The notes: generated by a model from the letters alone, not told the origin. A stretch of 55,247 bases of DNA from Candidatus Amesbacteria bacterium RIFCSPLOWO2_01_FULL_49_25 (GCA_001773725.1 MEXP01000027.1:1-55247); one strand, 5' to 3'. Positions 12,384 to 53,937 are shown, counted from the stretch's first letter. Numbers and translations: made by a program.

Positions 12384-12530
12384 ATGTTCCAAAATTTAGG
12401 TACTACTGAACTGTTGATTATCGCGGCGGTGCTTTTGGTTCTGTTTGGCGGAAAGAAGCTTCCCGAACTTTCTCGGGGAGTGGCTGACTCAATCCGCGAA
12501 TTCCGAAAAGCGACCAGAGAAGATGCCTAA
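12384..12530 (+). CDS. tatA: TatA/E-family protein, copy 1 (48 aa; not in ORF track)
   Basis: MFQNLGTTELLIIAAVLLVLFGGKKLPELSRGVADSIREFRKATREDA*: TM with polar E, FG hinge, amphipathic helix; perfect SD. Confidence 0.92.
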   Translation: MFQNLGTTELLIIAAVLLVLFGGKKLPELSRGVADSIREFRKATREDA

Positions 12531-12535
12531 GCGAT

Positions 12536-15064
12536 ATGACAGCGACTGTCCAGATCGCTATTGTAAAAAAAGCAATTTTGGCGTCGACAGTGATAACAGC
12601 TGCGGCCCTGGTATCCCCTTTGATTACCAGGGCTTCGGCTGGATCACCGCAAATTTGCGCTGCGGAGTCGAGCTGCAGTATCGGCGAATTTTTGTTTGAT
12701 GACGAATACACTCCAATAACGAGCGGAACTTGTACTATCACCAGCCGTTACCCCGACGGAAGTTTATTTTTGAATTCCCAAGCCATGACGGGTTCCTCTG
12801 ATGGCTGGTATGCTTATTCTTTTACCACGCCTTCGACAACCGGGTATTACCGAACACAAGTCTGCTGTACGGTGGGGACAGATTATTTGTGTGTGGATAA
12901 GGCTTTTGAGTCGTCCGAGAGTTCGGGATTGACTGCAAGCAGTATAGCCGCGGCTGTGTGGGGATACAGCAGTCGGACGATGACGGGGTTTGGCACTTTG
13001 GTATCTGACATATGGGGTTATTCTTCCAGATCGATGACTGGATTTGGGACACTAGCTCAGGACGTTTGGAATCACAATCCCCGAAAATTGACGGAGAGTG
13101 GAAGTAACCTTTCTGAGATAGAAAGAATTGTTAAAGAAAACCGGATAATGCTGGAAAGACTGGTAAATAAGCCAATCGTGCAAAATTTTATAGAAGAGGA
13201 TGGACCTGAGCTGTCGCAGATACTGCCTCAGTCCCGCACAACACTTGATGAATTGTATCTGGATACCCAGGTGGTGGCCAGCAAAATGGGGGTAGTGATG
13301 CTGTCCTGGGAAGATTTGACGGGAGAGGAAATAGAAGGGACACTGGGTGAGCTGCAAGCCACGGTGGGAAACGAGGAAGACAAGGCGGGGTCGGATTCGG
13401 TGATTGGTCAACTGGATTGGGTAGTGGATACCTGGGATTGGGAAATTGCTCGGACAGCCCGGGCGCAAGCGGTTGAATTGTCCCGGAGGCTGGTTGGAGC
13501 CGAACGGTCATTAAAGGGCGTAGGGGGCTTTAAGGCGGCTTACCAAGAGGCAAAGTCGGCGCTGGCTCAGGTTGAAGTATTGGAGAAGACGGTTGGTAGC
13601 GGGGAAGACGGGACAGAAGGCAAAACGGTTTATTCCCAGCTAGCGGAAGTTATAGATCTGGCACAAAAATGGGATCAGCACCAAGCCCGGGTGGATAAAC
13701 TGTTGACGGGATGGAATGTCCAAAAGGCCGTCGAATTACAGGGGGAGATCGAGATGGTAAAAAGTGACGTTCTGGCGGTTAACCGGGTTCCCAAGGGAAG
13801 TATCGCGATAAACGAAGCTTTTGGAGCCAACGAGGTCGATAAAAAGTTGAAGAATAAGCTGTTGGCCCTGCGGGGGCTGATTGATTTGAACCGGAGGTAC
13901 ATAGTTTCGGGAGCGGGGGACGGGATGGCTTACACGTGGCTGGAGGAAGGCAGTGTGATTTTTAAGTCGGTGGTGACAAACCCTTCAAAGATTATCGGGC
14001 AGGAAGTGGAAGTGAAATATTACTTGCCGCCGGAAGTGCGGGAAGAGGATATTTTAGACAAGGACGAGGGATTGGAAGTTAAGTATGACTCGGAGAAAGA
14101 TCAATACTACGTGGAAGGTAAATTTTTGCTTAAGGCTAGTGAAAGTCGCACGCTGGCGGTGCGGGTGGAGGATATTTGGGTGATAACAGACGAAGAAATT
14201 AACAGTTTGAAAAACCAGGCTGAAGAGTTGGCTAGACCTTTGGAGAAAACGGCGTTTTTTGCCCAGGGCGTGACTTTGAAAAGCGATATCGACGTGGCTT
14301 TGGACAAAATCACGGTTTTGATCAAAACGGCGATAACCCCGGAGCAGAAGATCCGATCTTATCGGGAGGCTCAGATTGAGATGGGCGGAGTAAAGATTAA
14401 GATGGAGAAACTGAAAGACTTGGTGGTTCAGGCTAGTGCCACCGGGGGCCTGTTGGGGTTTGTGGGCGGAGCCCAGGCATTGGCGGTGTGGGGACTGATC
14501 ATAATTTTACTGGCGGGTTTCGTGTTTTTGGCGGTATACATGAAGATGATATCCGGGCACGGGGTAAAGGTGAGAGTAGAGTCGGATGAGGACGATGAGG
14601 AGGAAAAGAGAGAGCCTGTAAAACAGCACCATCGCTCCGGCGGTCACGGGACGGGGTGGAGGATCGTAACTACGGCGATCGTGGCGGCGCTAATATCGGG
14701 GACGACGTCCGGAGTGGTGATGCGGCAAATGGTGCTGTCTCAGGTTGAGGCCAAGGTGGTGGAGGAGAAACCGGAGCAAAAGATCGTTGAGCAGGTTGAA
14801 CCTATATTGGAAACCGAAGTGATGGGGGAGAATACGGAGCAACCAGCTGTCGGCGGGCCGGATGTAGTCAGGATCGTGGTGGAAGAAGGGGGTTATGTTA
14901 ATTTCCGAGTCGGGCCGGGCTTGGGCGAAGAGGTAGTTGCTAAGTTATTGAAGGATGAGGAAGTGGTTAGGGTTTCGGAGAAGGGGGATTGGGTGGAGGT
15001 GGAGAGAGAAGACGGGACGGTCGGGTGGGTGGCGGCCAAGTTTGTAGTAGCTGGGTCAGAGTGA
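12536..15064 (+). CDS. large exported membrane-anchored protein with C-terminal SH3b domain
   Basis: Signal peptide ending RASA, Cys-containing beta domain, 18-aa Trp repeats, long helical region, TM pair, and C-terminal YVNFRVGPG...GDWVEV...GWVAAKFV (SH3b). Confidence 0.8.
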   Translation: MTATVQIAIVKKAILASTVITAAALVSPLITRASAGSPQICAAESSCSIGEFLFDDEYTPITSGTCTITSRYPDGSLFLNSQAMTGSSDGWYAYSFTTPSTTGYYRTQVCCTVGTDYLCVDKAFESSESSGLTASSIAAAVWGYSSRTMTGFGTLVSDIWGYSSRSMTGFGTLAQDVWNHNPRKLTESGSNLSEIERIVKENRIMLERLVNKPIVQNFIEEDGPELSQILPQSRTTLDELYLDTQVVASKMGVVMLSWEDLTGEEIEGTLGELQATVGNEEDKAGSDSVIGQLDWVVDTWDWEIARTARAQAVELSRRLVGAERSLKGVGGFKAAYQEAKSALAQVEVLEKTVGSGEDGTEGKTVYSQLAEVIDLAQKWDQHQARVDKLLTGWNVQKAVELQGEIEMVKSDVLAVNRVPKGSIAINEAFGANEVDKKLKNKLLALRGLIDLNRRYIVSGAGDGMAYTWLEEGSVIFKSVVTNPSKIIGQEVEVKYYLPPEVREEDILDKDEGLEVKYDSEKDQYYVEGKFLLKASESRTLAVRVEDIWVITDEEINSLKNQAEELARPLEKTAFFAQGVTLKSDIDVALDKITVLIKTAITPEQKIRSYREAQIEMGGVKIKMEKLKDLVVQASATGGLLGFVGGAQALAVWGLIIILLAGFVFLAVYMKMISGHGVKVRVESDEDDEEEKREPVKQHHRSGGHGTGWRIVTTAIVAALISGTTSGVVMRQMVLSQVEAKVVEEKPEQKIVEQVEPILETEVMGENTEQPAVGGPDVVRIVVEEGGYVNFRVGPGLGEEVVAKLLKDEEVVRVSEKGDWVEVEREDGTVGWVAAKFVVAGSE
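12929..13093 (+). repeat. three 18-aa (54-nt period) in-frame Trp repeats
   Basis: IAAAV-WGYSSRTMTGFGTLVSDI-WGYSSRSMTGFGTLAQDV-WNHNPRKLT; Trp codons at 12959, 13013 and 13067. Confidence 0.85.
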
Positions 15065-15466
15065 TCCTTGGAGGTAGCGGTTGTAGAGATAATGGATAAG
15101 GATGGCGGGCGGGAGGCCTAAGATAACCAGGTGCCGGTATTTGAGCCCCGGGAGAAGAATGATAATGCTGGTGAAAGCGTGGAGGGGGAGAGTGACGGCG
15201 AGGCGGAGAAAGTACTGGGCCATGTTGCCCCAGGCCAAAAAGTTGAAGAGATACAAAACGCTTTCGGAAAATCCAAACAGCAGTCCGGTAAGAGCGGCGA
15301 AGAGCAGTTTTGTCCTGACGGGGGCGGATGGCCAACCGATGTAGATGACGGCGGCTTTAACGAGTTCTTCGACTAGGAAGGGAAGGGGCAGGAGGAGTTC
15401 TAGCGGCCAAATGAGGAAGGGGGCGATCAGGGCCAAAAGCGGCGCGATGAGGCTACTTGTCGTCAT
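15056..15466 (-). CDS. PrsW-family intramembrane glutamic protease (minimal, 136 aa)
   Basis: VEELVK (EExxK), FGFSE (FxxxE), LRLAVTLPLH, IHYLYN (HxxxN); multi-TM. Confidence 0.8.
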   Translation of the reverse strand: MTTSSLIAPLLALIAPFLIWPLELLLPLPFLVEELVKAAVIYIGWPSAPVRTKLLFAALTGLLFGFSESVLYLFNFLAWGNMAQYFLRLAVTLPLHAFTSIIILLPGLKYRHLVILGLPPAILIHYLYNRYLQGSL

Positions 15467-15602
15467 TTTTCAGGCCCTTTTTGAGTTCCCTGACGGCCTC
15501 ACCGAAACCCTTGCCCAGTTCCGGGAGTTTCTTGCCGCCAAAAAGGACCAGCAAAATGACTAAGATGATGATTAATTCGGTAGTACCCAAATTTTGAAAC
15601 AT
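15453..15602 (-). CDS. tatA: TatA/E-family protein, copy 2 (49 aa; not in ORF track)
   Basis: MFQNLGTTELIIILVILLVLFGGKKLPELGKGFGEAVRELKKGLKNDDK*; SD GGGGGTGA; overlaps the PrsW-like start. Confidence 0.92.
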   Translation of the reverse strand: MFQNLGTTELIIILVILLVLFGGKKLPELGKGFGEAVRELKKGLKNDDK

Positions 15603-15619
15603 TAATGTTCACCCCCTTT

Positions 15620-15757
15620 TTATTTCGAAGCTTTTTTATATTCTTTTATAGCTTCGCCGATGCCCTTGATAAACTCGGGGATTTTTTTACCCCCGAAAAG
15701 AAAGATTAAAATGGCAATAATTATTATTAATTCGGTAGTACCGAGGTTCCGCAACAA
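15620..15757 (-). CDS. tatA: TatA/E-family protein, copy 3 (45 aa, TTG start; not in ORF track)
   Basis: MLRNLGTTELIIIIAILIFLFGGKKIPEFIKGIGEAIKEYKKASK*; SD AAAGGACGGTGA overlaps the tatC stop. Confidence 0.9.
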   Translation of the reverse strand: MLRNLGTTELIIIIAILIFLFGGKKIPEFIKGIGEAIKEYKKASK

Positions 15758-15762
15758 GATAA

Positions 15763-16506
15763 TCACCGTCCTTTCTTAATTAAGAATCGGTTTAATAGTA
15801 ACGTAAGTTCGAATAAAAAAACAAGGGGGACAACTAGAAGAATGTCGGACATAATATCGGTGGGCGGCAGAAGCATGACGAACATCAGGGAGACGGCGTA
15901 AGCTATGGGACGCTGGCGGGAGAGAACTTTGATGGTGATGACTTTGAGATGTATTAATATGCTCATCAAAATGGGGAATTGGAAGGCCAAACCCAAGGCC
16001 AGGCCGGTGAGGACAATTTTGGTGAGTAAGAGTTCGATGTCTAAGATATTGCCTATATGGAGCTCCAGAGATTTTTGGTAAAAGATGGCCACGACGTATT
16101 TCATGACGGTTATGCCATAGAGAAATCCGCAGACTAGGAGGAGAAGTGAGAGAGGGAGGGGGAGGGTCACCAGTTTGAGCTCTTTTTTGGACAAGGCCGG
16201 TTTTAGAAACGACACCACTTGATAGATGATGAAGGGAAAGATGGCAATCAGGCCTACAAACATGCCGGAGTTGATGGCCAGGGTGAAGAACTGGAAAGGC
16301 GACGTAAAGACGACGTTGATTCCCTCGAGGTTGAGAAAACCCAGGACAAAAGTGACAAGTTTTTCGTAGTAGAAGAAACCTATCGAGGCGGTGATAAGAA
16401 AGAGGGAGGCCAAAAAAAGGAGGCGCTTTCTGATCTCGAGCAGGAAGGGAAAGTATTTGTTGATGGTGGTTTGGAGTTCGGGGGTGAGGACAGCGGTGTC
16501 GGGCAT
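15763..16506 (-). CDS. tatC: twin-arginine translocase subunit TatC
   Basis: LLEIRKRLL, TSPFQFF, PFIIYQVVSFLKPALSKKE, GLAFQFP, PPTDIMS...PLVFLFE; six TMs. Confidence 0.93.
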   Translation of the reverse strand: MPDTAVLTPELQTTINKYFPFLLEIRKRLLFLASLFLITASIGFFYYEKLVTFVLGFLNLEGINVVFTSPFQFFTLAINSGMFVGLIAIFPFIIYQVVSFLKPALSKKELKLVTLPLPLSLLLLVCGFLYGITVMKYVVAIFYQKSLELHIGNILDIELLLTKIVLTGLALGLAFQFPILMSILIHLKVITIKVLSRQRPIAYAVSLMFVMLLPPTDIMSDILLVVPLVFLFELTLLLNRFLIKKGR

Positions 16507-16515
16507 GACTAGATG

Positions 16516-16677
16516 TTACTCTTTTTTCTTGAGAGTTTCACCCTCGGCGGCGCCTTTTTTGTACTCTTTGATCGCTTCGCCGATACCTCTTATGAACTCG
16601 GGGATTTTCTTACCGCCGAAAAACAGAAGCAAAAGTGCGAGAATGATGATGAGTTCGGTGGCGCCTAGGTTGAACAT
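16516..16677 (-). CDS. tatA: TatA/E-family protein, copy 4 (53 aa; not in ORF track)
   Basis: MFNLGATELIIILALLLLFFGGKKIPEFIRGIGEAIKEYKKGAAEGETLKKKE*. Confidence 0.92.
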   Translation of the reverse strand: MFNLGATELIIILALLLLFFGGKKIPEFIRGIGEAIKEYKKGAAEGETLKKKE

Positions 16678-16682
16678 AAGAT

Positions 16683-16847
16683 TTAGCTGTCGTCTGAGTC
16701 GGCGGCAATTTCTGATTTGATCTTTTTAACTTCTTTGGCCGCTTCGCCCATCCCGCGGGCCAGTTCGGATAGCTTTTTGGAGCCAAAGAATAGGAGGAGA
16801 AGGACGAGGATGATGACCAGCTCCGCGGTGCCGATATTGGAAAACAT
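16683..16847 (-). CDS. tatA: TatA/E-family protein, copy 5 (54 aa; not in ORF track)
   Basis: MFSNIGTAELVIILVLLLLFFGSKKLSELARGMGEAAKEVKKIKSEIAADSDDS*. Confidence 0.92.
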   Translation of the reverse strand: MFSNIGTAELVIILVLLLLFFGSKKLSELARGMGEAAKEVKKIKSEIAADSDDS

Positions 16848-16852
16848 ATACT

Positions 16853-17047
16853 TTAGGATTCTTGGGGTTTATCTGATTTATCGGTAACGGCGCTCTCGAA
16901 CTCGGCCTTGACCTTCTTGAGTTCCTTGGAAGACTCGCCCAGGCCGTGTGACAGCTCTTTGACTTTTTTGCCGCCGAAGAGGATCAAAAGTATGGCGGCG
17001 ATGATAAGGAGTTCGGTGAGACCGATATTTTTTATAAAGTCGAACAT
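16853..17047 (-). CDS. tatA: TatA/E-family protein, copy 6 (64 aa)
   Basis: MFDFIKNIGLTELLIIAAILLILFGGKKVKELSHGLGESSKELKKVKAEF...; TATACT 6 nt upstream of the ATG. Confidence 0.92.
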   Translation of the reverse strand: MFDFIKNIGLTELLIIAAILLILFGGKKVKELSHGLGESSKELKKVKAEFESAVTDKSDKPQES

Positions 17048-17112
17048 AACCTAAGTATATAGAACCTTAATGAACTATTGTCAATGGTCGCATGCCCGAT
17101 CAGACTGCAAAT

Positions 17113-17295
17113 TCATGTGTGACCGGTATAGTCGGTATTGTTTTCCTGGAAGTTGGCTTTGGGGTCGAATTCGAGCTGGGGAGGGGCGGGGGGCGGGGGA
17201 GGAGATTTCTTCTTGCCGCCGAGCTTGAGGGCGCCGCCAAAGAGGACTAGGGCCAGAAAGCCCAAGATGCCGAGTTCGGTGCCGGAAAGCTGCAT
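17113..17295 (-). CDS. TatA-like single-TM peptide with poly-Pro tail (60 aa)
   Basis: MQLSGTELGILGFLALVLFGGALKLGGKKKSPPPPPAPP...: the TEL...LFGG TM matches the TatA copies, but the amphipathic helix is replaced. TATAGT lies 8 nt upstream. Confidence 0.55.
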   Translation of the reverse strand: MQLSGTELGILGFLALVLFGGALKLGGKKKSPPPPPAPPQLEFDPKANFQENNTDYTGHT

Positions 17296-17337
17296 GTGGT
17301 TTTACTATAATAAGTCGGATAAAATTTGTCAATTATT

Positions 17338-17967
17338 ATGGCGAAAAGTATCGATTATGTTTTGTTTGATTGGGACGGGTGTCTGGCTCGGACAATGCAT
17401 TTGCTGCTTCGGGCACTCAAGACGGAGCTGGGCAAGCAGGATTTGCGGCTAACCGATAAACAGGTAATCAGGTATATGTTTGGGAATTGGCTGGGAGGCT
17501 TGCGGTATTGGGGAGTGGCCGATGCGGAAGAGACGGTAGTCAAGATAAAAGAGGAATATGATAAGAAGAAAGGTGAGGTGAAGCTCTACGCCGGGGTGAA
17601 GGAGACACTGAGGAGACTTGTGAAGCGGGGCAAGCGGCTGGGGGTAATTAAGCTGGAGGGAGATGGAAATGAGATTCGACCTCTATTGGGGATAGAATCC
17701 GTACAGATCTTTACCGGCCGGGACTTGGCGGGGGAGAAGCCGGAGGCCAAGGTTTTGGAGCGGGCGGTGGAATTGCTGGGAGGTCGGAAGGCGGAGACGT
17801 TGTGGGTGGGTAATTCAGTGAATGATTTGGAAATGGGACGGGGGGCCGGGGTGGAGACGGTGATTTTTTGTCCGGCTGAAAATGAGAAGTTTGGGAACAG
17901 TAAAATATTGGAGGCGGAAGGGGTGCGGGTAATAGGGGAGTTTAGGGAGCTGTTAAAAATAGTTTGA
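17338..17967 (+). CDS. HAD-superfamily hydrolase (partly degenerate motifs)
   Basis: LFDWDGCL (motif I), KPEA (motif III), WVGNSVND (motif IV with D>N). Confidence 0.8.
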   Translation: MAKSIDYVLFDWDGCLARTMHLLLRALKTELGKQDLRLTDKQVIRYMFGNWLGGLRYWGVADAEETVVKIKEEYDKKKGEVKLYAGVKETLRRLVKRGKRLGVIKLEGDGNEIRPLLGIESVQIFTGRDLAGEKPEAKVLERAVELLGGRKAETLWVGNSVNDLEMGRGAGVETVIFCPAENEKFGNSKILEAEGVRVIGEFRELLKIV

Positions 17968-17979
17968 TATGATTTAGGG

Positions 17980-18426
17980 GTGGTTGTTGAAGTAGACCAG
18001 AGTGGAAGATTAGAGCACCTGGATACAGATACGGTTATAGCGTTTGCCAATGGGGAAAGCGGGGCGGTGTTGATCAAAGTTTCGGTTAAGAGACAAATTG
18101 TTCAGAGTTTGAAGCGAACTATAATTCCACATGATCAGTTGATGCCGTTGTTGTTTGCTGTAGTAGTGTCTTTGCTGGTGAAGGGGTTGAATAGGCAAAT
18201 GATTTTGGAGATTGATGAGGAGTATACGGGAAAAAACAAATTTATCGAGCAAGCACTGATTAAGATGCTGGGGGCAAGGTGGGAGGGAGAGGTCAGATTT
18301 AGGCTCATTGGGAAAGAAAGCCCGGCACATAAGTTGGCCTGGGAGGTACACCGCTCGGACTTGAAGAAACGGGGAGTGAGAAAACTAAAGTTGGAAGAGA
18401 TAATGAAGTATTTCGTCGGGAAATGA
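17980..18426 (+). CDS. hypothetical protein, DUF3800-like / RNase H-like acidic motifs
   Basis: N-terminal VEVDQSG (compare DUF3800 YxDESG), IDEEY, IGKESPAH; GTG start. The family call is from motif memory only. Confidence 0.5.
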   Translation: MVVEVDQSGRLEHLDTDTVIAFANGESGAVLIKVSVKRQIVQSLKRTIIPHDQLMPLLFAVVVSLLVKGLNRQMILEIDEEYTGKNKFIEQALIKMLGARWEGEVRFRLIGKESPAHKLAWEVHRSDLKKRGVRKLKLEEIMKYFVGK

Positions 18427-18427
18427 A

Positions 18428-18488
18428 AAAGTCGGGATTTGGCACACCTCTCGCTTTTACGAGGGGGGTCCAAACTCACCCCGACTTT
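18428..18488. ncRNA. 61-nt structured element (rod-like hairpin) downstream of the DUF3800-like gene
   Basis: Nested stems AAAGTCGGG/CCCGACTTT, TTTGG/CCAAA and CCTCTCG/CGAGGGG around loop CTTTTA. Minus-strand TATAAT at 18502-18497 lies 8 nt before it. Confidence 0.55.
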
Positions 18489-18537
18489 GTATGTGTATTA
18501 TACTAAGTTTTGCAAGTGTTCGCAGTTGATAGGTGGA

Positions 18538-19842
18538 TTACTTAAGGGAAGCAAGCGTGGCTTTGGTTTTGGCGTCTTTGAGTGTCCGGCCGGTGGTGCC
18601 GGCGGTGGTGTGACCGGAGATGACTTCGTCCCAGACGGCGTCGGCGATTTCGGAAGCGGAGGCGCCGCCGGCTTGGGATTCAATAAAGGTGCCGGTACCG
18701 AGGTCACGGGTGCTGCCGGCAGTGTTGCCGGAGAAGGTGTGGTGGAGACGGACGCCGGTGCGGGTGACTCCGGTGCCGACGTCGATGCCATAACCGGTAT
18801 TGTTGTAGATAAGATTGTTTTCGAAAATATTGTCGGAGATGGAAGTGCCGCCTAAGTTGGCTCCATCGGCGCCCGAGCCGGAAATGATGCAGGTACTGAT
18901 GATTGATTGCGATACAGAGTTGCCTATATTGATACCGTTTGATGTGGAACTTTCGATGGCACAGGTTTGAATGCTGGTGCGAGTGGAAGAGGATAAATCG
19001 ATGCCGTTGGCGGTAGCGGTATTTATCCAGCAGTCTTTGACGAGGGCATTGTCTCCGGTAATGGTGATGCCATTGACTGAGCCGCCGGCGGTGGGTTGGA
19101 CATAAAGACCGGAGACCTCGACATTATCGGCGGTGACGGTAATCGGGACGGTGGAACTTAAAGTGGGTTTGATTTGGAAGGGGTAACCTGGGCCGCGGAC
19201 TTTGAGGTTGTTTTTGGTGATAGTCAGGCTTTCGGGGACCGTGGTTATGCCGCCGCTGGCTGTGGAGAGGCAAAAGATAATGTCGTTGTTGCCGGCGGTG
19301 GCAAGTGTTTGGGCCTTGGCGAAGGTGAGGACGGCGGTGGATGGCTGGAGGCCATCGTTGGTATCAAGGCCGCCGGCAGGGTCCCAGTACCATATGTTAC
19401 CAAGAGTCTGATGTTTACCGCGCAGGGACTCGATGAGGTAGAGCATATTGAGATCTTCGGGGGGAGTAATAATAGTAGGGGAGGAGGATTGGGCGATGAT
19501 CACCGTGACGTAGTCGGATGGTTTGATGGGGTTGTTGCTGAAGGTGTTGGTAGCCACGAGGTTTCCACCCCGGACATAAACCGTGATGGTAGGGGGCGCT
19601 CCGGGTGATTCAAACTGGATACGCCAGTCGTTGATAAGGACCATGGTGATACCGACCTGGGCTCCGCCGCCCAGATCCTGCTTGCCAAAGGCATTGCAAA
19701 TGTGGCCGTAGTCCAGAAAATCCAGCTCGTCTTCGTAGTCCCTGATTGCATTAACCAGTTCCTGAATAGTGACAGAAGTGCCTTCCACCGGATCGTCGAC
19801 TTGAATAACCCGGTCGAACTTAAAAAAAGTCAGCGTGGCCAT
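18538..19842 (-). CDS. signal-peptide-less fibre-like protein with right-handed beta-helix (pectin lyase-like)
   Basis: N-domain TIQELVNAIRDYEDE...GKQDLGGG...GITMVLINDW; beta-helix ITVTADNVEVSGL, GITITGDNALVKDCWI, IYNNTGYGIDV; C-terminal EIADAVWDE. Confidence 0.7.
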   Translation of the reverse strand: MATLTFFKFDRVIQVDDPVEGTSVTIQELVNAIRDYEDELDFLDYGHICNAFGKQDLGGGAQVGITMVLINDWRIQFESPGAPPTITVYVRGGNLVATNTFSNNPIKPSDYVTVIIAQSSSPTIITPPEDLNMLYLIESLRGKHQTLGNIWYWDPAGGLDTNDGLQPSTAVLTFAKAQTLATAGNNDIIFCLSTASGGITTVPESLTITKNNLKVRGPGYPFQIKPTLSSTVPITVTADNVEVSGLYVQPTAGGSVNGITITGDNALVKDCWINTATANGIDLSSSTRTSIQTCAIESSTSNGINIGNSVSQSIISTCIISGSGADGANLGGTSISDNIFENNLIYNNTGYGIDVGTGVTRTGVRLHHTFSGNTAGSTRDLGTGTFIESQAGGASASEIADAVWDEVISGHTTAGTTGRTLKDAKTKATLASLK

Positions 19843-19851
19843 AGGTTACGG

Positions 19852-20916: not shown

Positions 20917-20983
20917 TGCCTTCTTTTACTGCTTGGATTTGGTGGGTTAGATCGGTAGCGTCAATCGGCGGTGCATCTGACAT
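20783..20983 (-). CDS. small coiled-coil protein (66 aa)
   Basis: ATG lies 2 nt after the 1013-aa gene stop; heptad pattern LTHQIQAVKEGIARAENNIKIFSDEVQKQIVLKATLTAELQRL. Confidence 0.6.
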   Translation of the reverse strand: MSDAPPIDATDLTHQIQAVKEGIARAENNIKIFSDEVQKQIVLKATLTAELQRLQLKAENSAGTPQ

Positions 20984-46827: not shown

Positions 46828-48381
46828 ATGCCTTTACAGCAGTACCATATACCTGGGTCGGTTAATGTCAATCCGCACGAGTGCTTTAACGATCCCAAGA
46901 CGTATCCCAATTTTCAACGAGAATTGGAAAAGTTTAAGGAGCTGCTGGTTGACTTGGTAGACAGACGGGCGAATAAAACATTTTATAAGTTCGGGGACGG
47001 GGACTATTATTTCTTGACAAAGAACCCGGTGGGCAGTGCCACGCCGGGGAGCGGCGCCCTCTTTAAGAAAGGTTATGATGACATTGACCATGAAGAGTTT
47101 GTAAAAAATACGATTAAGAACGACTTCGTTCTGTGCGAGATCTACCCTGAAAACAGAAGAATGTGGGCTGAGTTGTATCCGAAGAGAAAAATTGATTTTC
47201 CGGCCGAGTTTGCATACGGATTGTTTTACAATCGCTGGCTGTTTAAAACTTTTAAGGGAAGAATAGGGCTGATCGGAGCCAAAGAAAAACTTGAACTAAT
47301 CCAGGAACTTTTCAAGTTTAAACAGTACCGAGACTATATTCAAATGGACGGATTTGTGGATTATATTTACTTTCCGCAAAAAGGCTCGGCAGATGACTAC
47401 AATGCGACTTTGAAATATGTGGCAAAACAATTAAAGACAGCTAAAGCTGATATCTACTTGATGGGACTAGGTCATGCAAAAAGCGCAATTCTGCACCGGT
47501 TTAAAGATTACAAGAAGGCGGTGTACTTGGATGTAGGGAGCGGGATTGATGGCCTGGCGGGGATGATTCGGCAGGTAAAGCCGTATGCCGGGGACTGGAT
47601 AAATTTCAGAATAGAAGGATACGACTACTCCCAAACCCATCAAGATTATGTTTATTATACCGGCTCAGGGCAGCACGTGTTTTTAAGGAGAGGTAAAAAG
47701 GACGATTTACTGGACGCGGCTTTGAACAAAGCTCGGGGAGGAATGCTCAAGCATCCGCAGTATTTTGACGTTTATCATCATCATTTCCAGTCTCTGCGGG
47801 ACAAAAAAATTAAACTTTTGGAAATCGGGGTGAGAAAAGGGGGGTCATTGTGGATGTGGAAAAAGTATTTCCCGCTGGGCAAAATAACGGGTATTGATAA
47901 CCAGCCTCAAGCCAAACAGTGGGAAGGGCCGAATATTGAAATTTTTATCGGTGACCAGGCGGACGCGGCTTTCTTGAGACGAGTTAGTCAAGAGGCCGGA
48001 CCATTTGACATTGTTATTGACGATGGGGGCCACATGATGCATCAGGTGCGAATTTCTTTTTTGACCTTGTTTCCTTTGCTGAAGGAGACGGGCATATACG
48101 TGATTGAGGACACTCACACTTCGTACTGGCCAAATTGGGGGGGGAAACTGTACGGTGCGGAAACGACGGTGGAAATGCTCAAATCGCTGGTAGACCGGCT
48201 GCAGTGGTGGGCCTATCGCTGGCCGCATGCCGGAGAGTTTAAAATAAATAAGCCGTTAGATTATTTGGAAGCCAATCTGAAATCACTTCATTTTTATGAC
48301 GGGATGTGTTTGATTTACAAAGGCCGGGTGTCCGACCCCAAGGTTTGGGAGGACGGGGTGGTGAGAGATTATGATATTTGA
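46828..48381 (+). CDS. fusion: GT-D (DUF1792)-like N-domain + class I SAM (sugar O-)methyltransferase
   Basis: FYKFGDGD (compare RFGDGE) and YLDVGSGID in the N-domain; LLEIGVRKGGSL, IDDGGH, YVIEDTHT in the C-domain. Confidence 0.65.
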   Translation: MPLQQYHIPGSVNVNPHECFNDPKTYPNFQRELEKFKELLVDLVDRRANKTFYKFGDGDYYFLTKNPVGSATPGSGALFKKGYDDIDHEEFVKNTIKNDFVLCEIYPENRRMWAELYPKRKIDFPAEFAYGLFYNRWLFKTFKGRIGLIGAKEKLELIQELFKFKQYRDYIQMDGFVDYIYFPQKGSADDYNATLKYVAKQLKTAKADIYLMGLGHAKSAILHRFKDYKKAVYLDVGSGIDGLAGMIRQVKPYAGDWINFRIEGYDYSQTHQDYVYYTGSGQHVFLRRGKKDDLLDAALNKARGGMLKHPQYFDVYHHHFQSLRDKKIKLLEIGVRKGGSLWMWKKYFPLGKITGIDNQPQAKQWEGPNIEIFIGDQADAAFLRRVSQEAGPFDIVIDDGGHMMHQVRISFLTLFPLLKETGIYVIEDTHTSYWPNWGGKLYGAETTVEMLKSLVDRLQWWAYRWPHAGEFKINKPLDYLEANLKSLHFYDGMCLIYKGRVSDPKVWEDGVVRDYDI

Positions 48382-49118
48382 ATTAGTTTCATATAGTTTA
48401 CATTGGGCTTAATTTTGATTTTTTCTTTTGAATAGGCGATATACTCTCCACGGCTGGCGATGGATTTTCTGACGTCATCGGGAATTCGCAGTAAGCCGAA
48501 GCCGTAGTAGGCAAAGAGATTTTGCCAAAAAGTCAGCGGCTGTTCGTTGGGGTGGTGGTAATGGGCATTATCGCTTCCGGGTTGTTGAAAAGAAAACCAG
48601 ATTAAATTTGAATGGGTTACCAAATTGAGTATCAACTGGCTGGAAAACGGCGGTTCGATGTGCTCGGCTACCTCGGTGCATAACACTATATCGAACTTCT
48701 TATTCAACTTGAGGGGGTCTCTGAGGTCGTGATGAATGATTTTTTTCTTCGGTATGCCCCGTTTAATGCACAGTTCAATTCCTGCCTGGGCTCCCTCGAT
48801 GCCTGTAATATCGATACCTTTATCCAAGAAGCCTTTGGTGAACCATCCGGCCGCACTGCCGGCTTCCAGAACCTTAGTAAGATTCTTTCCTGTGATAATT
48901 TTGTAATACTTTTTGATGGCATTGACATAATTTCTAATTTCATTTGCATTTACATGATCTTCTTTAAAATATGCTTGAGGATAAAAATTGTCTAAGTTGA
49001 AAATATTGTAAGCCCCGGGAATATTTTGGTTAAACCACCACTTTTGGTTATTTCCAAGATACCCTTGTTCGATATCGGTTGTAAAACACGTACATTTAGT
49101 TAGTTTCTTTTTCATCAT
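48369..49118 (-). CDS. class I SAM-dependent methyltransferase
   Basis: VLEAGSAAGWF, GIEGA, FDIVLCTEVAEHI. Confidence 0.85.
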   Translation of the reverse strand: MMKKKLTKCTCFTTDIEQGYLGNNQKWWFNQNIPGAYNIFNLDNFYPQAYFKEDHVNANEIRNYVNAIKKYYKIITGKNLTKVLEAGSAAGWFTKGFLDKGIDITGIEGAQAGIELCIKRGIPKKKIIHHDLRDPLKLNKKFDIVLCTEVAEHIEPPFSSQLILNLVTHSNLIWFSFQQPGSDNAHYHHPNEQPLTFWQNLFAYYGFGLLRIPDDVRKSIASRGEYIAYSKEKIKIKPNVNYMKLIQIS

Positions 49119-49123
49119 TTAAT

Positions 49124-51391
49124 TTACGTTAAATTCTTCACTTTATTATATGAATTTTGTGCCTCTAAATTATCAGGAATGAATTTTAAAATGTTTTTGT
49201 AATTTGAGAGAGCCTCTGCGTAGTTTTTTAACTTAGTGTTGATTTTTCCTAAGTATAAATGGGCGTCTAATAAGTCTTTATTCAGAAGTAGGGTGCTTTT
49301 TAAATACTTTTTTGCCGACTCGAGATTTCCGGACTGATATTTAATTACCCCGAGCCAAAAATGGGCTAGTTCGTGTTTGGGATCAAGCTGCAAAACTTTT
49401 TGAAAGTTTGTTTCGGCTGCGGCGTAATCCTTTGCGATCAGGTGAGTTAAGCCGAGGTTGAGAAAATCGGAAGTGTTTTTGGGAGAATAGACAAACTTGC
49501 CCGTATCAGTGACGGTAATGTTTTTGGGCTTTTGACTTTGGAGGTAGCTTTTCCAGATAGTTAAATATGCCTCTTCGAGGTTTTTTACGAAGCGGGGGGT
49601 GTCAAATAAAGGATACGATTTACGGTTTCTGATGAGCACGCTGCGAATTTGCTGGAGCTTGTCCGGGTGAGTGGCCAGATCGACAGCCAGAGCCTCGTAC
49701 TGGGAGAGATCACGGGTAATTAGCTGGGGCAGGCCGATGGCGGTCAAGATGCTGGCAGATACTCGGGAAGCAAAGTGATTACCCAGCAGACAAACTACCG
49801 GTACCCCCGCCCACAGGCAGTCAGACGTGGTGGTATGGCCGTTGACGATGTGGGTATCCAGGCACAGGTCGGCTAATTTGATTCTGGTTAAATGATTTTC
49901 TTTGGTGACCTTGGGGGAAAAAATAATTCGCCGGGGGTCCACGCCGTGAGATTTGGTGTATTTTTTCAAGTTTTGGGTGGAGATAGGGTTGTCTGCTAAC
50001 TGCCAGAGGACGGAGTGGGGGATTCGGGTTAAGATATTCATCCAAGTTTTAAATACAGGCGGCTCGAGTTTGTATGGAGAGTTGAAGGAGCCGAAGATAA
50101 AAGCTTGATCCGGGAGCTGGAAATCCCGGCGGTCGAGTTTTTTTTGACCTGTGTATTGGGTGAAGTCATTTATCTGGTAGGTGTGGGGCATGATGACCAG
50201 CTTTTCTTGGAAATCGGCGGAATTGGGAGCCACGATGTTATCGACGACAATGTAATCGAAAAAGTCGGCGCCGGTGGTACCGGGAAAGCCCAAATAAGAG
50301 ACTTGAATCGGGGCTGGGCGCATGGCGGCGGCTTTGATCATGTTGCCGCGGGTGATGCCTTTGAGATCTATTAAGATATCTACGCCGCGTTTGTTGATTT
50401 CGGATGCAACTTGAGAATATGATTTGCCCTGCAAATCTATAAATTGATCGCTTTCTTTTTTGATGCGAGCCAAAATCAAACTGCCATCTTGGGGTCCATA
50501 AGAAAATACAAGGACTTTAAACCGGCTGCGGTCATGCAGACCAAACAGGCTGGCTACTTTGTGACCAGTGGGGAAGTCGCGGAAGCCGTCTGAAAGATAG
50601 CCTAAAGTGATTCGGTTTACAGAATTGTGTTTGAAGGTAAAGCTGGTTTTTTTCACCTCTATTTGTGAACTCCAAGCCTTGGCTACCTGGAGATTTGTAG
50701 CCATATCTGCTTTGCGGATGAGATTGTTGAAGGGATCTTCCCCGACCAAATTTGAGTCGATTTTGCGACTGAGCCTGTCCAGACCGGTCCAGTCGCATGT
50801 CTGGCGTTTTAGATGGTAGTACCAAGAAAGAATCGAGGTAATCCGCTGATGTTTGGGAAATTTGCGCAGAGCGTTTTCAAGGAGCTGCATCGACTCGGGA
50901 ATTTGCTGCCGGTCGAACAAGGCGATACTTAGGTCGTAATAAGGCCCGGGTTCTTGGGGATTGGTTTTTATGGCCTTTTTAAAGTAAATTTGGGCCTTTT
51001 TATAATTTCCCTGTCGGTAATATACGGCTCCCAAGTGGTGGTAAATGTTGGCCGCGTCGGCAGGCGCCGCGTCTGTTTTTAGGGCCCGGTGATAGTATTT
51101 GACTGCTTGAGTAAAGTTTTCCTGGCTTTGGTAAGCAAATCCCAGTGAGTGCAGGGCGGTAAAAAATTGGGGATCGAGCTGGAGAGCTTTTTGGAAGCAC
51201 CAGATGGCATCTTCGGGTCGGTCCAGCCGGGCCAGGGTGTTGCCCAGATTGAGATAGGCGGCCGGATTTTGGGAGTTGAGAAGAAGTGACTTGCGGAAAA
51301 ATATTAAGGCATCTTCGAGTTTGCCCTGCTGGGTCAACCATGCCCCCAAATCATTGAAATCTTGGTCACTTTTAGGAATTGCGTCTGACAT
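49124..51391 (-). CDS. TPR + GT41 + C-terminal TPR glycosyltransferase, paralog 12
   Basis: Start MSDAIPK at 51391; SDGFRDFPT, FNSPYKL, NGHTTTSD; additional TPRs follow the GT domain. Confidence 0.92.
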   Translation of the reverse strand: MSDAIPKSDQDFNDLGAWLTQQGKLEDALIFFRKSLLLNSQNPAAYLNLGNTLARLDRPEDAIWCFQKALQLDPQFFTALHSLGFAYQSQENFTQAVKYYHRALKTDAAPADAANIYHHLGAVYYRQGNYKKAQIYFKKAIKTNPQEPGPYYDLSIALFDRQQIPESMQLLENALRKFPKHQRITSILSWYYHLKRQTCDWTGLDRLSRKIDSNLVGEDPFNNLIRKADMATNLQVAKAWSSQIEVKKTSFTFKHNSVNRITLGYLSDGFRDFPTGHKVASLFGLHDRSRFKVLVFSYGPQDGSLILARIKKESDQFIDLQGKSYSQVASEINKRGVDILIDLKGITRGNMIKAAAMRPAPIQVSYLGFPGTTGADFFDYIVVDNIVAPNSADFQEKLVIMPHTYQINDFTQYTGQKKLDRRDFQLPDQAFIFGSFNSPYKLEPPVFKTWMNILTRIPHSVLWQLADNPISTQNLKKYTKSHGVDPRRIIFSPKVTKENHLTRIKLADLCLDTHIVNGHTTTSDCLWAGVPVVCLLGNHFASRVSASILTAIGLPQLITRDLSQYEALAVDLATHPDKLQQIRSVLIRNRKSYPLFDTPRFVKNLEEAYLTIWKSYLQSQKPKNITVTDTGKFVYSPKNTSDFLNLGLTHLIAKDYAAAETNFQKVLQLDPKHELAHFWLGVIKYQSGNLESAKKYLKSTLLLNKDLLDAHLYLGKINTKLKNYAEALSNYKNILKFIPDNLEAQNSYNKVKNLT

Positions 51392-51417
51392 TCTTAGTGC
51401 TATATTATAGGTGCTCA

Positions 51418-52464
51418 ATGAAAAAAGCACTGATTACCGGAATAACCGGACAGGATGGGAGCTACTTGGCCGAATTACTTTTGAAGAAGGGCTATAAAGT
51501 CTACGGGCTGCATCGCCGGTCTAGCAATCCCAACACGGCCCGGATTGACCATTTGTATGACAACCCCCGCTATCCCTATTTTTACACCGTTTACGGGGAT
51601 TTATCAGAAAGCTCCAGCGTGGCCAGAGTTATTGAGGAGGTAGAGCCGGACGAAATATACAATTTGGCCGCTCAGAGCCAAGTCCATGTTTCCTTTGAGC
51701 TGCCAGAATACACTGCCAATGTAACGGGCTTGGGGGCATTGCGGGTTTTGGAAACGCTGCGCAAGCTGAAGGCTAAAACCAGATATTACCAGGCTAGCTC
51801 TTCGGAAATGTTTGGTCGGGTTTTGGAAACTCCCCAGAGAGAGACCACGCCGTTTAATCCCTTGTCTCCCTACGGGGCTTCAAAAGCGTTTGCTTATTAT
51901 GTGACCAGGCTGTATCGCGACAGCTATAAATTGTTTGCCGCCAACGGAATACTTTTTAATCATGAATCTCCCCGGCGAGGAGAGAACTTCGTATCCCGGA
52001 AAATTTCCCTGGGATTGTCTAAAATCAGGGTGGGACTGATGGATAAATTGCGCTTGGGTAATTTGGACTCGCGGCGGGACTGGGGTTTTTCCAAAGATTA
52101 TGTGGAGGCAATGCACAAGATTATCGGGCACAAACAGCCTGATGACTTTGTGATTGCCACGGGCCAGACGCACAGTATCAGGGAATTTGTGGAGGAAGCG
52201 GGTCGGGTGTTGGGGATGAGGATTGTTTGGCAGGGCAAGGGAATGGGGGAAAAAGGCGTTAACGACAAAAACGGCAAAGTAGTAGTGGAAGTGGCAAGTG
52301 AGTTTTTCCGACCCAGCGACGTGGTGTTTTTGAAAGGGGACAGCACCAAGGCCAAAAGAGAGCTGGGCTGGAAGCCCAAAACCACCTTTAAAGAGCTGGT
52401 GGAAATAATGGTGAGTGCTGATTATAATCTGGCCAAAAGAATGTCCAGGATAGCAGCTTTCTGA
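51418..52464 (+). CDS. gmd: GDP-mannose 4,6-dehydratase
   Basis: KALITGITGQDGSYLAELLL, NLAAQSQVHVSF, YQASSSEMFG, SPYGASK, NHESPRRGENFV. Confidence 0.96.
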   Translation: MKKALITGITGQDGSYLAELLLKKGYKVYGLHRRSSNPNTARIDHLYDNPRYPYFYTVYGDLSESSSVARVIEEVEPDEIYNLAAQSQVHVSFELPEYTANVTGLGALRVLETLRKLKAKTRYYQASSSEMFGRVLETPQRETTPFNPLSPYGASKAFAYYVTRLYRDSYKLFAANGILFNHESPRRGENFVSRKISLGLSKIRVGLMDKLRLGNLDSRRDWGFSKDYVEAMHKIIGHKQPDDFVIATGQTHSIREFVEEAGRVLGMRIVWQGKGMGEKGVNDKNGKVVVEVASEFFRPSDVVFLKGDSTKAKRELGWKPKTTFKELVEIMVSADYNLAKRMSRIAAF

Positions 52465-52856
52465 TGGAAGAAATTTATTATAAAAAGAAATTGATGGGTA
52501 TTAAGATCAGGGGAGTGCCCAAGGGATCGATCCCGAGGACGCCGAAGGATTGGGCTCTGCAATTGGTAACGCTTAAGCACCCCAAGGGTACCCGCCTGGC
52601 CGCTCACTACCACCAGCCCAAAAAAAGACAAACTGCTAGGCTTCAGGAGTTCTTGTTTGTCAAAAGGGGTAAGGTGAGGCTGGATCTGTACGGGCCGGAC
52701 ATTGAGTATTTTAAGAAAATTTATTTGACTGCCGGACAAGGGTATCTGACGGTGGACGGGGGGTTTGGAATACAGTTCTTGCTCAATTCGGAGTTATTTG
52801 AGCTAAAGAACGGTCCGTTTGTGGAAGACAAGGTGACAATCGATGAAAAAAAGTAG
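52464..52856 (+). CDS. cupin-fold protein in sugar-nucleotide operon
   Basis: AHYH...QEFLFVKRGKV...ELKNGPF; coupled to gmd and degT. Confidence 0.6.
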   Translation: MEEIYYKKKLMGIKIRGVPKGSIPRTPKDWALQLVTLKHPKGTRLAAHYHQPKKRQTARLQEFLFVKRGKVRLDLYGPDIEYFKKIYLTAGQGYLTVDGGFGIQFLLNSELFELKNGPFVEDKVTIDEKK

Positions 52857-53937
52857 TGTAGCGCAGATGGAGCCGTGGTTTGATAAGAAGGAGGCGCGGG
52901 CGGTGTTTGATTATATGAAATCAGGGGGGTGGATTATGGAGTTTAGACAGACGCAAGAGCTGGAAAAGAGGCTGGCGGAACTTACAGATTCCAAGTACGC
53001 GATTATGACTGTCAACGGGACGGTGGCGCTTCTATTGGCCCTTAAGGCTTTGGGAGTCGGGCCGGGGGATGAGGTGGTGGTGCCAAATTTGACCATGATT
53101 GCTACCCCAAATGCCTGTGTGCTGGCGGGAGCCAGTCCGGTATTAGTTGACGTGGACCCGCAAAATTTGTGTCTGGATCTGACCGCGGCCCGAAAGCGGA
53201 TTGGCTCTAAAACAAAAGCCATGATTTACGTGCCGCTCAACGGCCGAAGTCACGATATGAGGAAAGTTAAAAAGTTTTGTAAAGAGAATAAGTTGTTTTT
53301 GATCGAGGACGCGGCTCAAGCATTGGGGTCTTTCTGCCGGGGCCAGCATTTGGGTACCTGGGGGGATATCGGGACGCTATCTTTTTCCACCCAGAAAATA
53401 ATTACTACCGGCCAAGGAGGGGCAATGCTGACAAACCGTAAGCGATTGGCTAATCGACTGTTGAAGATTAAAAACTTCGGCCGCCTTGGCGGTGGGAATG
53501 ATACTCATGATGAGTGGGGCTGGAATTTTCGATTTACGGATCTTCAGGCGGTGGTGGGGCTGGAGCAGATGAAGAAACTACCCGAGAGGATAAGAAGGAA
53601 AAAAGAAATTTACAAAAGATATCTTGATGAACTTAAGCACATATCGCGCATCAGGTTTATAGAGACTAATCTGGACGAAACTACCCCGTGGTTTGTGGAT
53701 ATTTATGTAGATGAACCCGATGCGCTGGCTAAATACCTGCAAAATAAAGGGATTGGCACCAGAAGAATTTACCCGGCGGTGAGCTCTCAAAAGATATACA
53801 AAAGCAATCTAAAGTTTCCGATAGCGGAAAGATTTGCCGGCTTGGGTTTGTGGCTGCCTTCTTCGTCGCAGTTGACCAATCGCCAGATCGACCATGTAAC
53901 CGGTCATATAAGAGCTTTTTTCAATAGCGTTTCTTGA
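52843..53937 (+). CDS. DegT/DnrJ/EryC1/StrS PLP aminotransferase (GDP-perosamine synthase-like)
   Basis: NGTVALLLAL, IEDAAQALGS, SFSTQKIITTGQGG, WNFRFTDLQA. Confidence 0.9.
   Translation: MKKSSVAQMEPWFDKKEARAVFDYMKSGGWIMEFRQTQELEKRLAELTDSKYAIMTVNGTVALLLALKALGVGPGDEVVVPNLTMIATPNACVLAGASPVLVDVDPQNLCLDLTAARKRIGSKTKAMIYVPLNGRSHDMRKVKKFCKENKLFLIEDAAQALGSFCRGQHLGTWGDIGTLSFSTQKIITTGQGGAMLTNRKRLANRLLKIKNFGRLGGGNDTHDEWGWNFRFTDLQAVVGLEQMKKLPERIRRKKEIYKRYLDELKHISRIRFIETNLDETTPWFVDIYVDEPDALAKYLQNKGIGTRRIYPAVSSQKIYKSNLKFPIAERFAGLGLWLPSSSQLTNRQIDHVTGHIRAFFNSVS

Follow-up and report, generated by a model that had tools for sequence, protein, structure and literature searches.

Phage-type fibre genes beside a multi-TatA translocase form a conserved gene cluster in Candidate Phyla Radiation bacteria

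In streptococci and staphylococci, clustered glycosyltransferases (GtfA/B) O-glycosylate a Ser/Thr-rich fibre, the serine-rich repeat protein (SRRP) adhesin, in the cytoplasm, and the genes of its dedicated exporter, the accessory Sec system, lie adjacent to them. HMW1C, an enzyme of glycosyltransferase family 41 (GT41), glycosylates the HMW1 adhesin in the cytoplasm before export (PMC3012730), flagellins are glycosylated by FlmG (PMC7591256), and pilin glycosylation in a cyanobacterium depends on an Ogt homolog (PMC9306852). Here we describe a gene cluster (12384-53937) within 55,247 nt of DNA of the ultra-small groundwater bacterium Candidatus Amesbacteria bacterium RIFCSPLOWO2_01_FULL_49_25 (MEXP01000027.1:1-55247; this whole stretch is called the window). 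The cluster comprises an operon of fibre proteins without signal peptides, genes of a twin-arginine translocation (Tat) system with several TatA paralogs, a PrsW-like protease, a membrane protein with an SH3b domain, and an array of GT41 enzymes bearing tetratricopeptide repeats (TPRs). Synteny strongly supports a link between the fibre genes and the Tat genes, and among the genomes sampled the cluster that they form is conserved and specific to the Candidate Phyla Radiation (CPR).

The locus shares with the SRRP systems the combination of clustered glycosyltransferases, a Ser/Thr-rich fibre and an adjacent exporter. It differs from them in having Tat rather than SecA2/SecY2, GT41 rather than GT4/GT8 enzymes, and phage-derived globular beta proteins, with neither a signal peptide nor LPXTG, as putative substrates; no SecA2/SecY2/Asp protein and no serine-rich-repeat LPXTG adhesin occurred among the window proteins scanned. 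HMW1C, unlike the GT41 proteins of the window, has no TPRs and N-glycosylates its target, acts as one enzyme against twelve here, and serves an adhesin with a Sec signal and a TpsB partner. The FlmG/Maf flagellin line resembles the cluster in its signal-less filament proteins, in cytoplasmic O-glycosylation by a TPR-bearing transferase whose TPR part recognises multiple substrate paralogs, and in its dedicated (type III) export; the exporter, the fold family of the glycosyltransferase and the filament protein are all different. Since its combination of exporter, substrates and enzymes differs from each of them, the window cluster is not a member of the SRRP, HMW1/HMW1C or flagellin lines.

Signal-less subunits can cross the membrane folded, as Tat 'hitchhikers' (the hydrogenase large subunit with HybO, DmsB with DmsA), but the known cases need a partner with a twin-arginine (RR) signal, none of which was found in this cluster, and their cargo consists of cofactor enzymes, not fibres. 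Phage tailspikes and fibres, with their domesticated forms (tailocins and contractile injection systems), are matched by a tailspike-like beta-helix fold, by homologs in phage structural modules and by a small coiled-coil partner. Unlike tailocins and injection systems, the cluster has no sheath, tube, baseplate or capsid genes, and contains Tat, PrsW and SH3b genes instead. An intramembrane protease is also tied to a Tat component in Providencia stuartii, where AarA activates TatA (PMC3712462), although AarA is a rhomboid protease and the one encoded here is PrsW/CPBP-like. Genomics of freshwater CPR bacteria has recorded Tat in Microgenomatia, Paceibacteria and Saccharimonadia (PMC9166423), and a literature search (CPR/Patescibacteria with Tat, GT41, tail fibre or S-layer) returned no description of this cluster.

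The fibre and Tat parts of the cluster consist of the following genes:

24035-24469, minus strand: 144-aa protein, first gene of the fibre operon (orthologs 5' of the 1013-aa homolog in loci L004, L007, L008 and L090)
20986-24027, minus strand: 1013-aa all-beta multidomain protein without Cys (144 homologs; AlphaFold2 predicted local distance difference test score, pLDDT, 86.8)
20783-20983, minus strand: 66-aa coiled-coil protein with the motif ENIxIFS, previously unannotated (phmmer matches in L004, L007 and L029)
19852-20916, minus strand: '354-aa' open reading frame (ORF), aligned with the 312-328-aa orthologs of L004, L091, L089 and L032
18538-19842, minus strand: 434-aa protein with an N-terminal alpha/beta domain and a right-handed beta-helix (PF13229, 1.7e-10; AlphaFold2 pLDDT 84)
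17326-18426, plus strand: HAD-family hydrolase (17326-17967; HAD_2, 6.6e-18) and 148-aa protein, between the beta-helix gene and the tat operon
17113-17295, minus strand: divergent TatA-like gene, first of the tat operon (transmembrane segment and FGG hinge, proline-rich tail)
16516-16677, 16683-16847 and 16853-17047, minus strand: three TatA genes 5' of tatC (PF02416, 8e-11 to 2e-9)
15763-16506, minus strand: TatC (PF00902, 2e-35)
15453-15602 and 15620-15766, minus strand: two TatA genes 3' of tatC (PF02416, 5.9e-15 and 6.5e-11)
15056-15466, minus strand: 136-aa PrsW/CPBP-like putative intramembrane protease (PF13367 matches and invariant motifs of orthologs)
12536-15064, plus strand: 842-aa SH3b membrane protein (Pfam SH3_3, 1.7e-9; hydropathy)
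12384-12530, plus strand: TatA paralog directly 5' of the SH3b gene, near-identical to the Pfam-positive TatA at 15453-15602

The tat operon thus reads divergent TatA-like, three TatA, TatC, two TatA and PrsW-like, and the TatA-SH3b pair converges on it. IMG/VR and genome sequences were searched for the 1013-aa family with an 11-sequence alignment as query, and the ORFs of all fetched loci were compared with the window proteins (phmmer). Among the loci chosen through this family, 29 cellular and 31 viral ones extended 5 kb or more downstream. The recurring order is a 1013-aa-like gene, (a 66-aa gene), (an ~310-aa gene), the 434-aa beta-helix gene, two to four TatA genes, TatC, TatA and a PrsW-like gene, with TatA and SH3b genes converging on it. 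TatC was present within 10 kb in 23 of the 29 cellular loci and in none of the 31 viral ones (Fisher's exact p=2e-11). The 842-aa SH3b protein, always beside Tat, had orthologs in 18/29 evaluable cellular loci and the PrsW-like protein in 15/29, both against 0/31 viral loci. Strong orthologs of the 434-aa protein (E<1e-60) were encoded in 22/29 cellular and 2/31 viral loci, any 434-like match being found in 25/29 and 23/31, respectively, and the 434-aa gene stood 1 kb or less 5' of the tat genes, on the same strand, in 18/29 cellular and 0/31 viral loci. Four of the six cellular loci without TatC belong to non-CPR genomes; the other two are L026 and L007, the latter having its Tat genes immediately beyond the sequence read, as L091, from the same Woesebacteria population, shows.

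The same association appeared among loci chosen through TatC (L088-L092; a metagenome scan with the lone TatC gave two loci). All five contain the TatA-TatC-TatA-PrsW / TatA-SH3b core, with a TatA gene just 5' of the SH3b gene in L090, L091 and L092 as in the window, and in four of them (L088, L089, L090 and L091) the 434-aa gene is directly 5' of the tat genes. Dozens of species-level CPR genomes repeat this order, which the viral relatives lack, and these data support the view that the fibre operon and the multi-TatA/TatC/PrsW/SH3b genes are one functional unit. The genomes bearing the cluster are labelled Woesebacteria, Levyibacteriota, Shapirobacteria, Roizmanbacteria, WWE3, Microgenomates and Saccharibacteria. 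Many cluster-bearing assemblies among the GTDB species representatives, TPA records included, are titled 'uncultured Gammaproteobacteria' or 'Pseudomonadales' (L012, L015, L016, L019, L022-L028, L030-L032, L034-L036 and L042); these labels look wrong, because their TatC ORFs match the window TatC at E values of 1e-41 to 1e-75, as against 2e-16 for E. coli TatC (phmmer).

The proteins beside the fibre operon have the features expected of a Tat translocase, namely TatC, TatA-type subunits and the signal-binding acidic residues of TatC, and the window TatC aligns with the sequences of the solved E. coli (9dzz) and Aquifex proteins. There are seven TatA-type genes in the window (five with PF02416 matches, the near-identical sixth and the divergent seventh). 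The window copy of the divergent gene has no Pfam match; its ortholog in L004 gives a weak TatA_B_E match. The median number of TatA genes per locus is 3. Sequence clustering of 83 TatA paralogs yielded no positional orthologous groups, the sequences being too short and too similar, and the paralogs found here are without a long N-terminal extension. The assignment of the 136-aa protein comes from its orthologs: EExxK, SE, H and HxxxN are invariant among 18 of them, 16 of the 18 match PF13367, and the window copy itself falls below the Pfam threshold. EExxK/R and HxxxN/D in a polytopic membrane protein, the pattern of the PrsW/CPBP group, are thus both present. By consensus match only, a near-consensus sigma-70-type site (TTGACA-17-TATAGT) is located just 5' of the tat operon (17332-17304, minus strand) and another (TTGACA-17-CATACT) 5' of the TatA-SH3b pair (12324-12352, plus strand).

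The 842-aa protein begins with a signal-like hydrophobic N-terminus, continues with a Cys-containing ectodomain and a coiled region and, after two transmembrane segments, has an SH3_3 domain at its C-terminus. Its signal is of the Sec type, Lys and Arg being interchangeable in its n-region. The ectodomain contains two to three copies of the repeat IAxAVWxYSxRTLTxFGTL (AVWGYSSRxxTGFGTL type), and a related motif occurs at the C-terminus of the 434-aa protein (SASEIADAVWD, encoded within 18538-18700, and TASSIAAAVWG in the SH3b ectodomain, within 12950-13100). The two match with an hhalign probability of 62% over 11 columns, the motif being present once in the beta-helix protein and repeated two to three times in the SH3b protein. 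This motif may serve docking or trimerisation; as for docking of the 434-aa protein on the SH3b protein, the likeness is suggestive, no more.

Ser and Thr together make up 21-22.5% of the fibre proteins and Gly 10-11%, the AlphaFold2 models are all-beta, and hydropathy revealed neither a hydrophobic N-terminus nor a transmembrane segment. Homologs elsewhere still contain 19-20% Ser+Thr, and the families overall 19-22%. The 1013-aa family is conserved in length (~1000 aa), and every member with a source name is called 'hypothetical'. Some clusters contain two or three paralogs of this family (L014; L022, 2576-11353; L090, 1-2614), and both giant versions of ~2,900-3,000 aa and short forms of ~660 aa, without the ~340-aa beta-domain insertion of the window protein, are found. 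The TTG annotated as the start of the '354-aa' ORF falls within the 66-aa gene; the true start is probably ~45 codons later, which would give a protein of ~310 aa, and this ORF has no Pfam or PHROG match. Members of the 66-aa family come after the 1013-aa homolog in cells and phages alike, and the 66-aa protein may be a fibre assembly factor. The 144-aa protein has no family match (Pfam, PHROG) and no similarity to the phage 'Gp80/head protein' gene found at the equivalent position. In the 434-aa family (57-77% identity; 400-449 aa, mostly 431-444), the C-terminus ...IADAVWDEVISGH...KATLASLK is invariant.

The fibre proteins are phage-derived relatives of virion-fibre or tailspike proteins. 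Homologs of the 1013-aa protein were found in 41 IMG/VR loci. In viral loci a major head protein (PHROG, 3e-52) and a portal (1e-36) are encoded at 10 kb or less on the same strand, as are a virion structural protein (3e-86) and a tail sheath (7e-9), which places the family in structural modules of uncultivated tailed phages. The phages carry a triad in which the 1013-aa homolog is followed by a coiled-coil protein of 50-66 aa with the ENIxIFS motif and then by an ~205-aa homolog of the N-terminal domain of the 434-aa protein. Some of the homolog-bearing contigs resemble large phages: they have numerous small ORFs and encode RNA ligase, GIY-YIG/NUMOD3 and HNH proteins, DNA polymerase A and an SNF2 helicase. 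The 1013-aa model is a chain of small beta domains. As a whole it retrieved nothing from the PDB at E<0.05 with Foldseek, and a profile search of PDB sequences with the protein gave no match. It has 77 BFVD matches at E<=0.001 to models of phage baseplate-wedge, structural and fibre proteins, which indicate shared domain types only, because the template modelling (TM) scores are 0.11 or less. With the 434-aa model, Foldseek retrieved pectate and rhamnogalacturonan lyases and the tailspikes of Det7, CBA120 and HK620. A tblastn search of 50,697 GenBank phage records with the 1013-aa and 434-aa proteins gave no match, so that metagenomes are the sole source of the phage relatives known to date. 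That the fibre proteins have no signal peptides follows from phage ancestry, with no need of a further assumption. Relatives are also present in Gemmatimonadota, Desulfarculales and Woesearchaeota assemblies. On a Gemmatimonadota chromosome (CP070792.1; L009, 10001-14596), a 1013-/434-like pair forms an isolated island, with transglycosylase, beta-lactamase, S41 peptidase and MacB/FtsX genes as neighbours and no phage or Tat genes within 10 kb.

An initial annotation of the window had described a collinear GT41 array, fibre operon and main tat operon, Thr/Ser/Gly-rich beta-structured proteins without signal peptides, and a membrane-anchored SH3b protein. All three gene groups do lie on the minus strand, the composition, hydropathy and models agree with its account of the fibre proteins, and the SH3_3 domain and two transmembrane segments with that of the SH3b protein. 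Its TatC and PrsW stand, the latter through the motifs of its orthologs; its count of six TatA genes has to be raised to seven, and it missed both the 66-aa gene and the phage-virion homology of the fibre proteins.

Upstream of the fibre operon lie the glycosyltransferase array and sugar-tailoring genes:

24526-42371, minus strand: ten intact tandem TPR-GT41 genes, packed tightly or overlapping (PF13844 in the five scanned, paralog identity), for proteins of 615, 607, 567, 702, 702, 631, 555, 516, 595 and 538 aa
42368-44138, minus strand: frameshifted GT41 gene, with a 409-aa N part and a 246-aa C part (PF13844 matches to two profile halves)
44269-48381, plus strand: 327-aa unassigned protein, 524-aa protein (C-terminal DUF268 methyltransferase-like domain) and 517-aa protein (C-terminal deoxysugar O-methyltransferase-like domain), from family searches
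48369-49118, minus strand: 249-aa class I S-adenosylmethionine-dependent methyltransferase (Methyltransf_23, Methyltransf_11)
49124-51430, minus strand: twelfth TPR-GT41 gene, 768 aa, with extra C-terminal TPRs (PF13844, 5e-97)
51379-53937, plus strand: Gmd (GDP-mannose 4,6-dehydratase; TIGR01472, 8e-147, above cutoff), 130-aa unassigned protein and DegT-family sugar aminotransferase (PF01041, 1.6e-88)

The seven GT41 loci scanned match PF13844 and TPR profiles at E values of 1e-76 to 1e-103, and the other five are 38-56% identical to them in the catalytic region. A 96-nt segment coding for the motif YLGFPGTTG occurs in 12 copies. The twelve TPR-GT41 genes of the initial annotation are thereby accounted for as 11 intact genes and one frameshifted gene. 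The +1 frameshift is repeated without indels in Logan contigs of four independent runs, with one C>T at 42981, and the gene is likely a pseudogene. The paralogs are old: their catalytic regions share 38-56% identity, their TPR regions only 20-35%. Besides the catalytic domain, the motifs typical of GT41 enzymes are present: the Lys of FNxxYK and NGHTT, which presumably correspond to the nucleotide-sugar-binding K842 and H920-T922 of human OGT, are kept in all paralogs except the one at 31921-34029 (FNRSSRI, NGGATT). The best solved relatives are human OGT (2e-123), SPY (2e-72) and XcOGT (6e-67). Over 264 nt at their 3' ends (28176-28439 and 31945-32208, minus strand), two paralogs share 82% identity and code for one and the same run of ~42 aa (ITHSLKEYEDLAVRLATHPDELEIRNSKLKINKKSYPLFDTP), whereas they are otherwise 49% identical, which indicates local gene conversion.

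The GDP-deoxysugar genes that had also been listed were confirmed as Gmd and a DegT-family aminotransferase, which together would provide a route to a GDP-amino-6-deoxyhexose. A GDP-6-deoxyhexose donor has a precedent, because SPINDLY uses GDP-fucose (PMC9715652). The C-terminal domain of the 517-aa protein is like MycE (3ssm, 4e-36) and TylF. In L004 the fibre operon is flanked by orthologs of all three of the 327-, 524- and 517-aa proteins, and in L001 by sugar genes. In the window, the last GT41 gene is separated from the fibre operon by 56 nt on the same strand. Catalytic GT41 ORFs within 10 kb of the cluster were found in the window and four more loci: inside the operon, between the 66-aa gene and the HAD/310-aa genes, in L007/L091; between two 1013-aa-like paralogs in L015; as one gene directly after the 434-aa gene in L016; and in L035. 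In the close relative L090, the sequence read, 10 kb to each side of tatC, contains no such ORF. The initial annotation had viewed the locus as a dedicated line of glycosylation plus Tat export and had proposed to check the co-occurrence and synteny of its parts. The Tat-fibre unit has emerged intact from that comparison, its gene order being kept; the GT41 link holds in few lineages, and the glycosylation line is supported only as a lineage-specific add-on to the cluster.

We regard it as an even chance that the cluster is a conserved envelope module whose core, in Microgenomatia-type CPR bacteria, is formed by domesticated fibre or tailspike proteins of phages, with export of the folded proteins by Tat, anchoring by the SH3b protein and, here, modification by GT41 enzymes. 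This reading starts from what the sequences show, namely which genes and protein families are present, their kinship with phage proteins, the conserved order and the lack of signal peptides. The 1013-aa, 66-aa, ~310-aa and 434-aa proteins, made without signal peptides, would fold and probably oligomerise in the cytoplasm like their phage relatives. In this lineage the twelve TPR-GT41 paralogs, with the methyltransferases and the GDP-6-deoxy-aminosugar pathway, would O-glycosylate them before export; the fibre proteins are thus putative GT41 substrates. The dedicated TatC and several TatA paralogs would then move the folded proteins across the membrane, through non-classical recognition or by piggy-backing on a partner. 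Outside, they would be held on the 842-aa protein, whose ectodomain carries the same AVW-type motif as the C-terminus of the beta-helix and whose SH3b domain would bind the cell wall, and the PrsW-like protease would process one of the components. A signal-less fibre, heavily O-glycosylated in some lineages, that passes through a multi-TatA translocon and is docked on the SH3b protein would amount to a new Tat surface-fibre pathway and a new class of Tat cargo; this stronger proposal is tentative. The cluster and its twelve GT41 genes suggest a new way of building a sugar-coated surface fibre.

A number of observations weigh against this reading of the cluster. The hallmark of a Tat substrate is an N-terminal S/T-R-R-x-F-L-K followed by a hydrophobic stretch. 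The fibre proteins do not bear it: the 1013-, 434-, 354-, 144- and 66-aa proteins and their orthologs contain no twin-arginine motif, the N-termini reading MAIxDD(W/F)x(I/V)D... or MA(L/T)xF(D/F)F.... The window has no ORF with an RR signal, and the cluster flanks, 839 kb in all, contain no conserved RR-signal family, only the N-terminus of TatC itself and scattered singletons. TatC has Glu at the equivalents of both E15 and E103 of E. coli TatC (HMMER alignment to 9dzz), which we take to be the residues that bind the twin arginines, and their retention argues for ordinary RR cargo encoded elsewhere in the genome. A canonical-looking TatC and the lack of RR signals count against a simple cargo model; export of the fibre proteins by Tat is put forward here as a possible route. 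Moreover, the tat and fibre operons are parted by the two opposite-strand genes for the HAD hydrolase and the 148-aa protein (the HAD ortholog, likewise inverted, is found inside the cluster in L004, L007 and L091), and the tat operon has its own promoter-like site. The Tat/PrsW/SH3b core of L092 (Daviesbacteria) has no fibre genes within 10 kb, the fibre pair occurs without Tat in phages and in non-CPR genomes, catalytic GT41 genes accompany only 4/40 genome loci besides the window (about five lineages, or about 5 of some 45 cellular loci), and the 57-77% identity of the 434-aa family is unusual for a host-range adhesin.

Part of this evidence fits an explanation in which Tat, with the SH3b and PrsW proteins that belong with it, serves ordinary RR cargo encoded elsewhere, while the fibre genes merely share the locus or its regulation and their products take another route or act inside the cell. 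The RR-binding glutamates of TatC, the absence of the motif from the fibre proteins, the solitary core of L092 and the separate promoter-like site of the window tat operon are all in keeping with it. Set against them is same-strand adjacency within 1 kb, often with gaps of less than 100 nt, in 18 species-level genomes of several CPR classes, an order that would be hard to maintain without selection and thus counts against mere neighbourhood; CPR genomes are, in addition, small, no RR cargo turned up in any flank, and the fibre proteins have no alternative export signal. We consider this explanation unlikely. Possible, though we do not favour it, is that the GT41 array has other targets (many cytoplasmic proteins, as for OGT, or pilins, or the SH3b protein before its export) and owes its position to a lineage-specific accident, which would be compatible with the Tat link. 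The rarity of GT41 genes near the cluster, their absence around tatC of L090 and TPR domains only 20-35% identical, which suggest many different acceptors, speak for such targets; the four independent arrangements that put GT41 genes within the fibre operon or right next to it, the other sugar-tailoring genes flanking it in L004 and L001, and the single uninterrupted co-directional run of array and fibre operon in the window (44138 to 18538) speak against them.

The fibre genes could also be the remnant of a decaying prophage or tailocin-like element, their products being released, if at all, by lysis. Viral contigs do contain many members of their families, with head, portal and sheath genes as neighbours, but no gene for a capsid, portal, terminase, sheath or integrase is present in the window or the CPR loci, the window and L090 have the cluster at one and the same chromosomal position, adjacent to the L1/L10/L7-L12 genes, and the identity and near-constant length of the 434-aa family are not expected of decaying genes. 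With no other phage gene and a conserved chromosomal position, this origin was rejected as highly improbable. Least probable of all is a decoy, in which surface homologs of phage fibres would occupy or hide the receptor of phages with related fibres: close homologs do exist in phages that probably infect the same organisms, yet the strong conservation of the 434-aa protein argues against an arms-race gene. The 'phage shielding' proposed in the initial annotation is an idea of this type; it and the 'host attachment' proposed there are speculation.

Much of bacterial diversity belongs to the CPR, and the majority of its members are believed to live attached to other cells; to our knowledge, how they build their surfaces and recognise partners is largely unknown. 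The cluster offers a concrete, testable candidate for such machinery, in which proteins of phage receptor-binding type are tied to an exporter of folded proteins. If the fibre proteins are Tat cargo, the targeting rules would have to admit very large proteins without signals, possibly glycosylated ones, and a route by which phage fibres become domesticated in cells would come to light. As a natural experiment, the twelve diverged TPR-GT41 paralogs would lend themselves to the study of how TPRs set acceptor specificity.

The window is part of a bacterial chromosome, since it also encodes ArgRS, MreB, NDK and the ribosomal proteins L1, L10 and L7/L12, and its sequence was found in groundwater, soil and sediment metagenomes. 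The GC skew of the whole window (1-55247) is extreme (+0.25; 16448 G and 9886 C) and follows the coding strand, plus-strand genes being G-rich (+0.16 to +0.50) and minus-strand genes C-rich (-0.10 to -0.45), so that the ribosomal-protein, tat, fibre and GT41 genes are all on the C-rich strand. This skew shifts amino-acid use: Ser+Thr accounts for 6-14% of residues in the products of plus-strand genes and 11-23% in those of minus-strand genes, and part of the Ser/Thr richness of the latter is therefore strand compositional bias. The closest relative, L090, has a GC skew of 0.22, and other relatives are without such skew.

One further gene lies between the TatA-SH3b pair and the L1 gene:

11297-12202, minus strand: 301-aa protein with a C-terminal helix-turn-helix-like segment

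This protein may regulate the cluster. The equivalent position is taken by a 302-aa protein in L090 and by a protein with a weak Fic-family match in L091, and L090 repeats the window neighbourhood, with genes for the 302-aa protein, L1, L10, L7/L12, MreB, PEGA and NDK.

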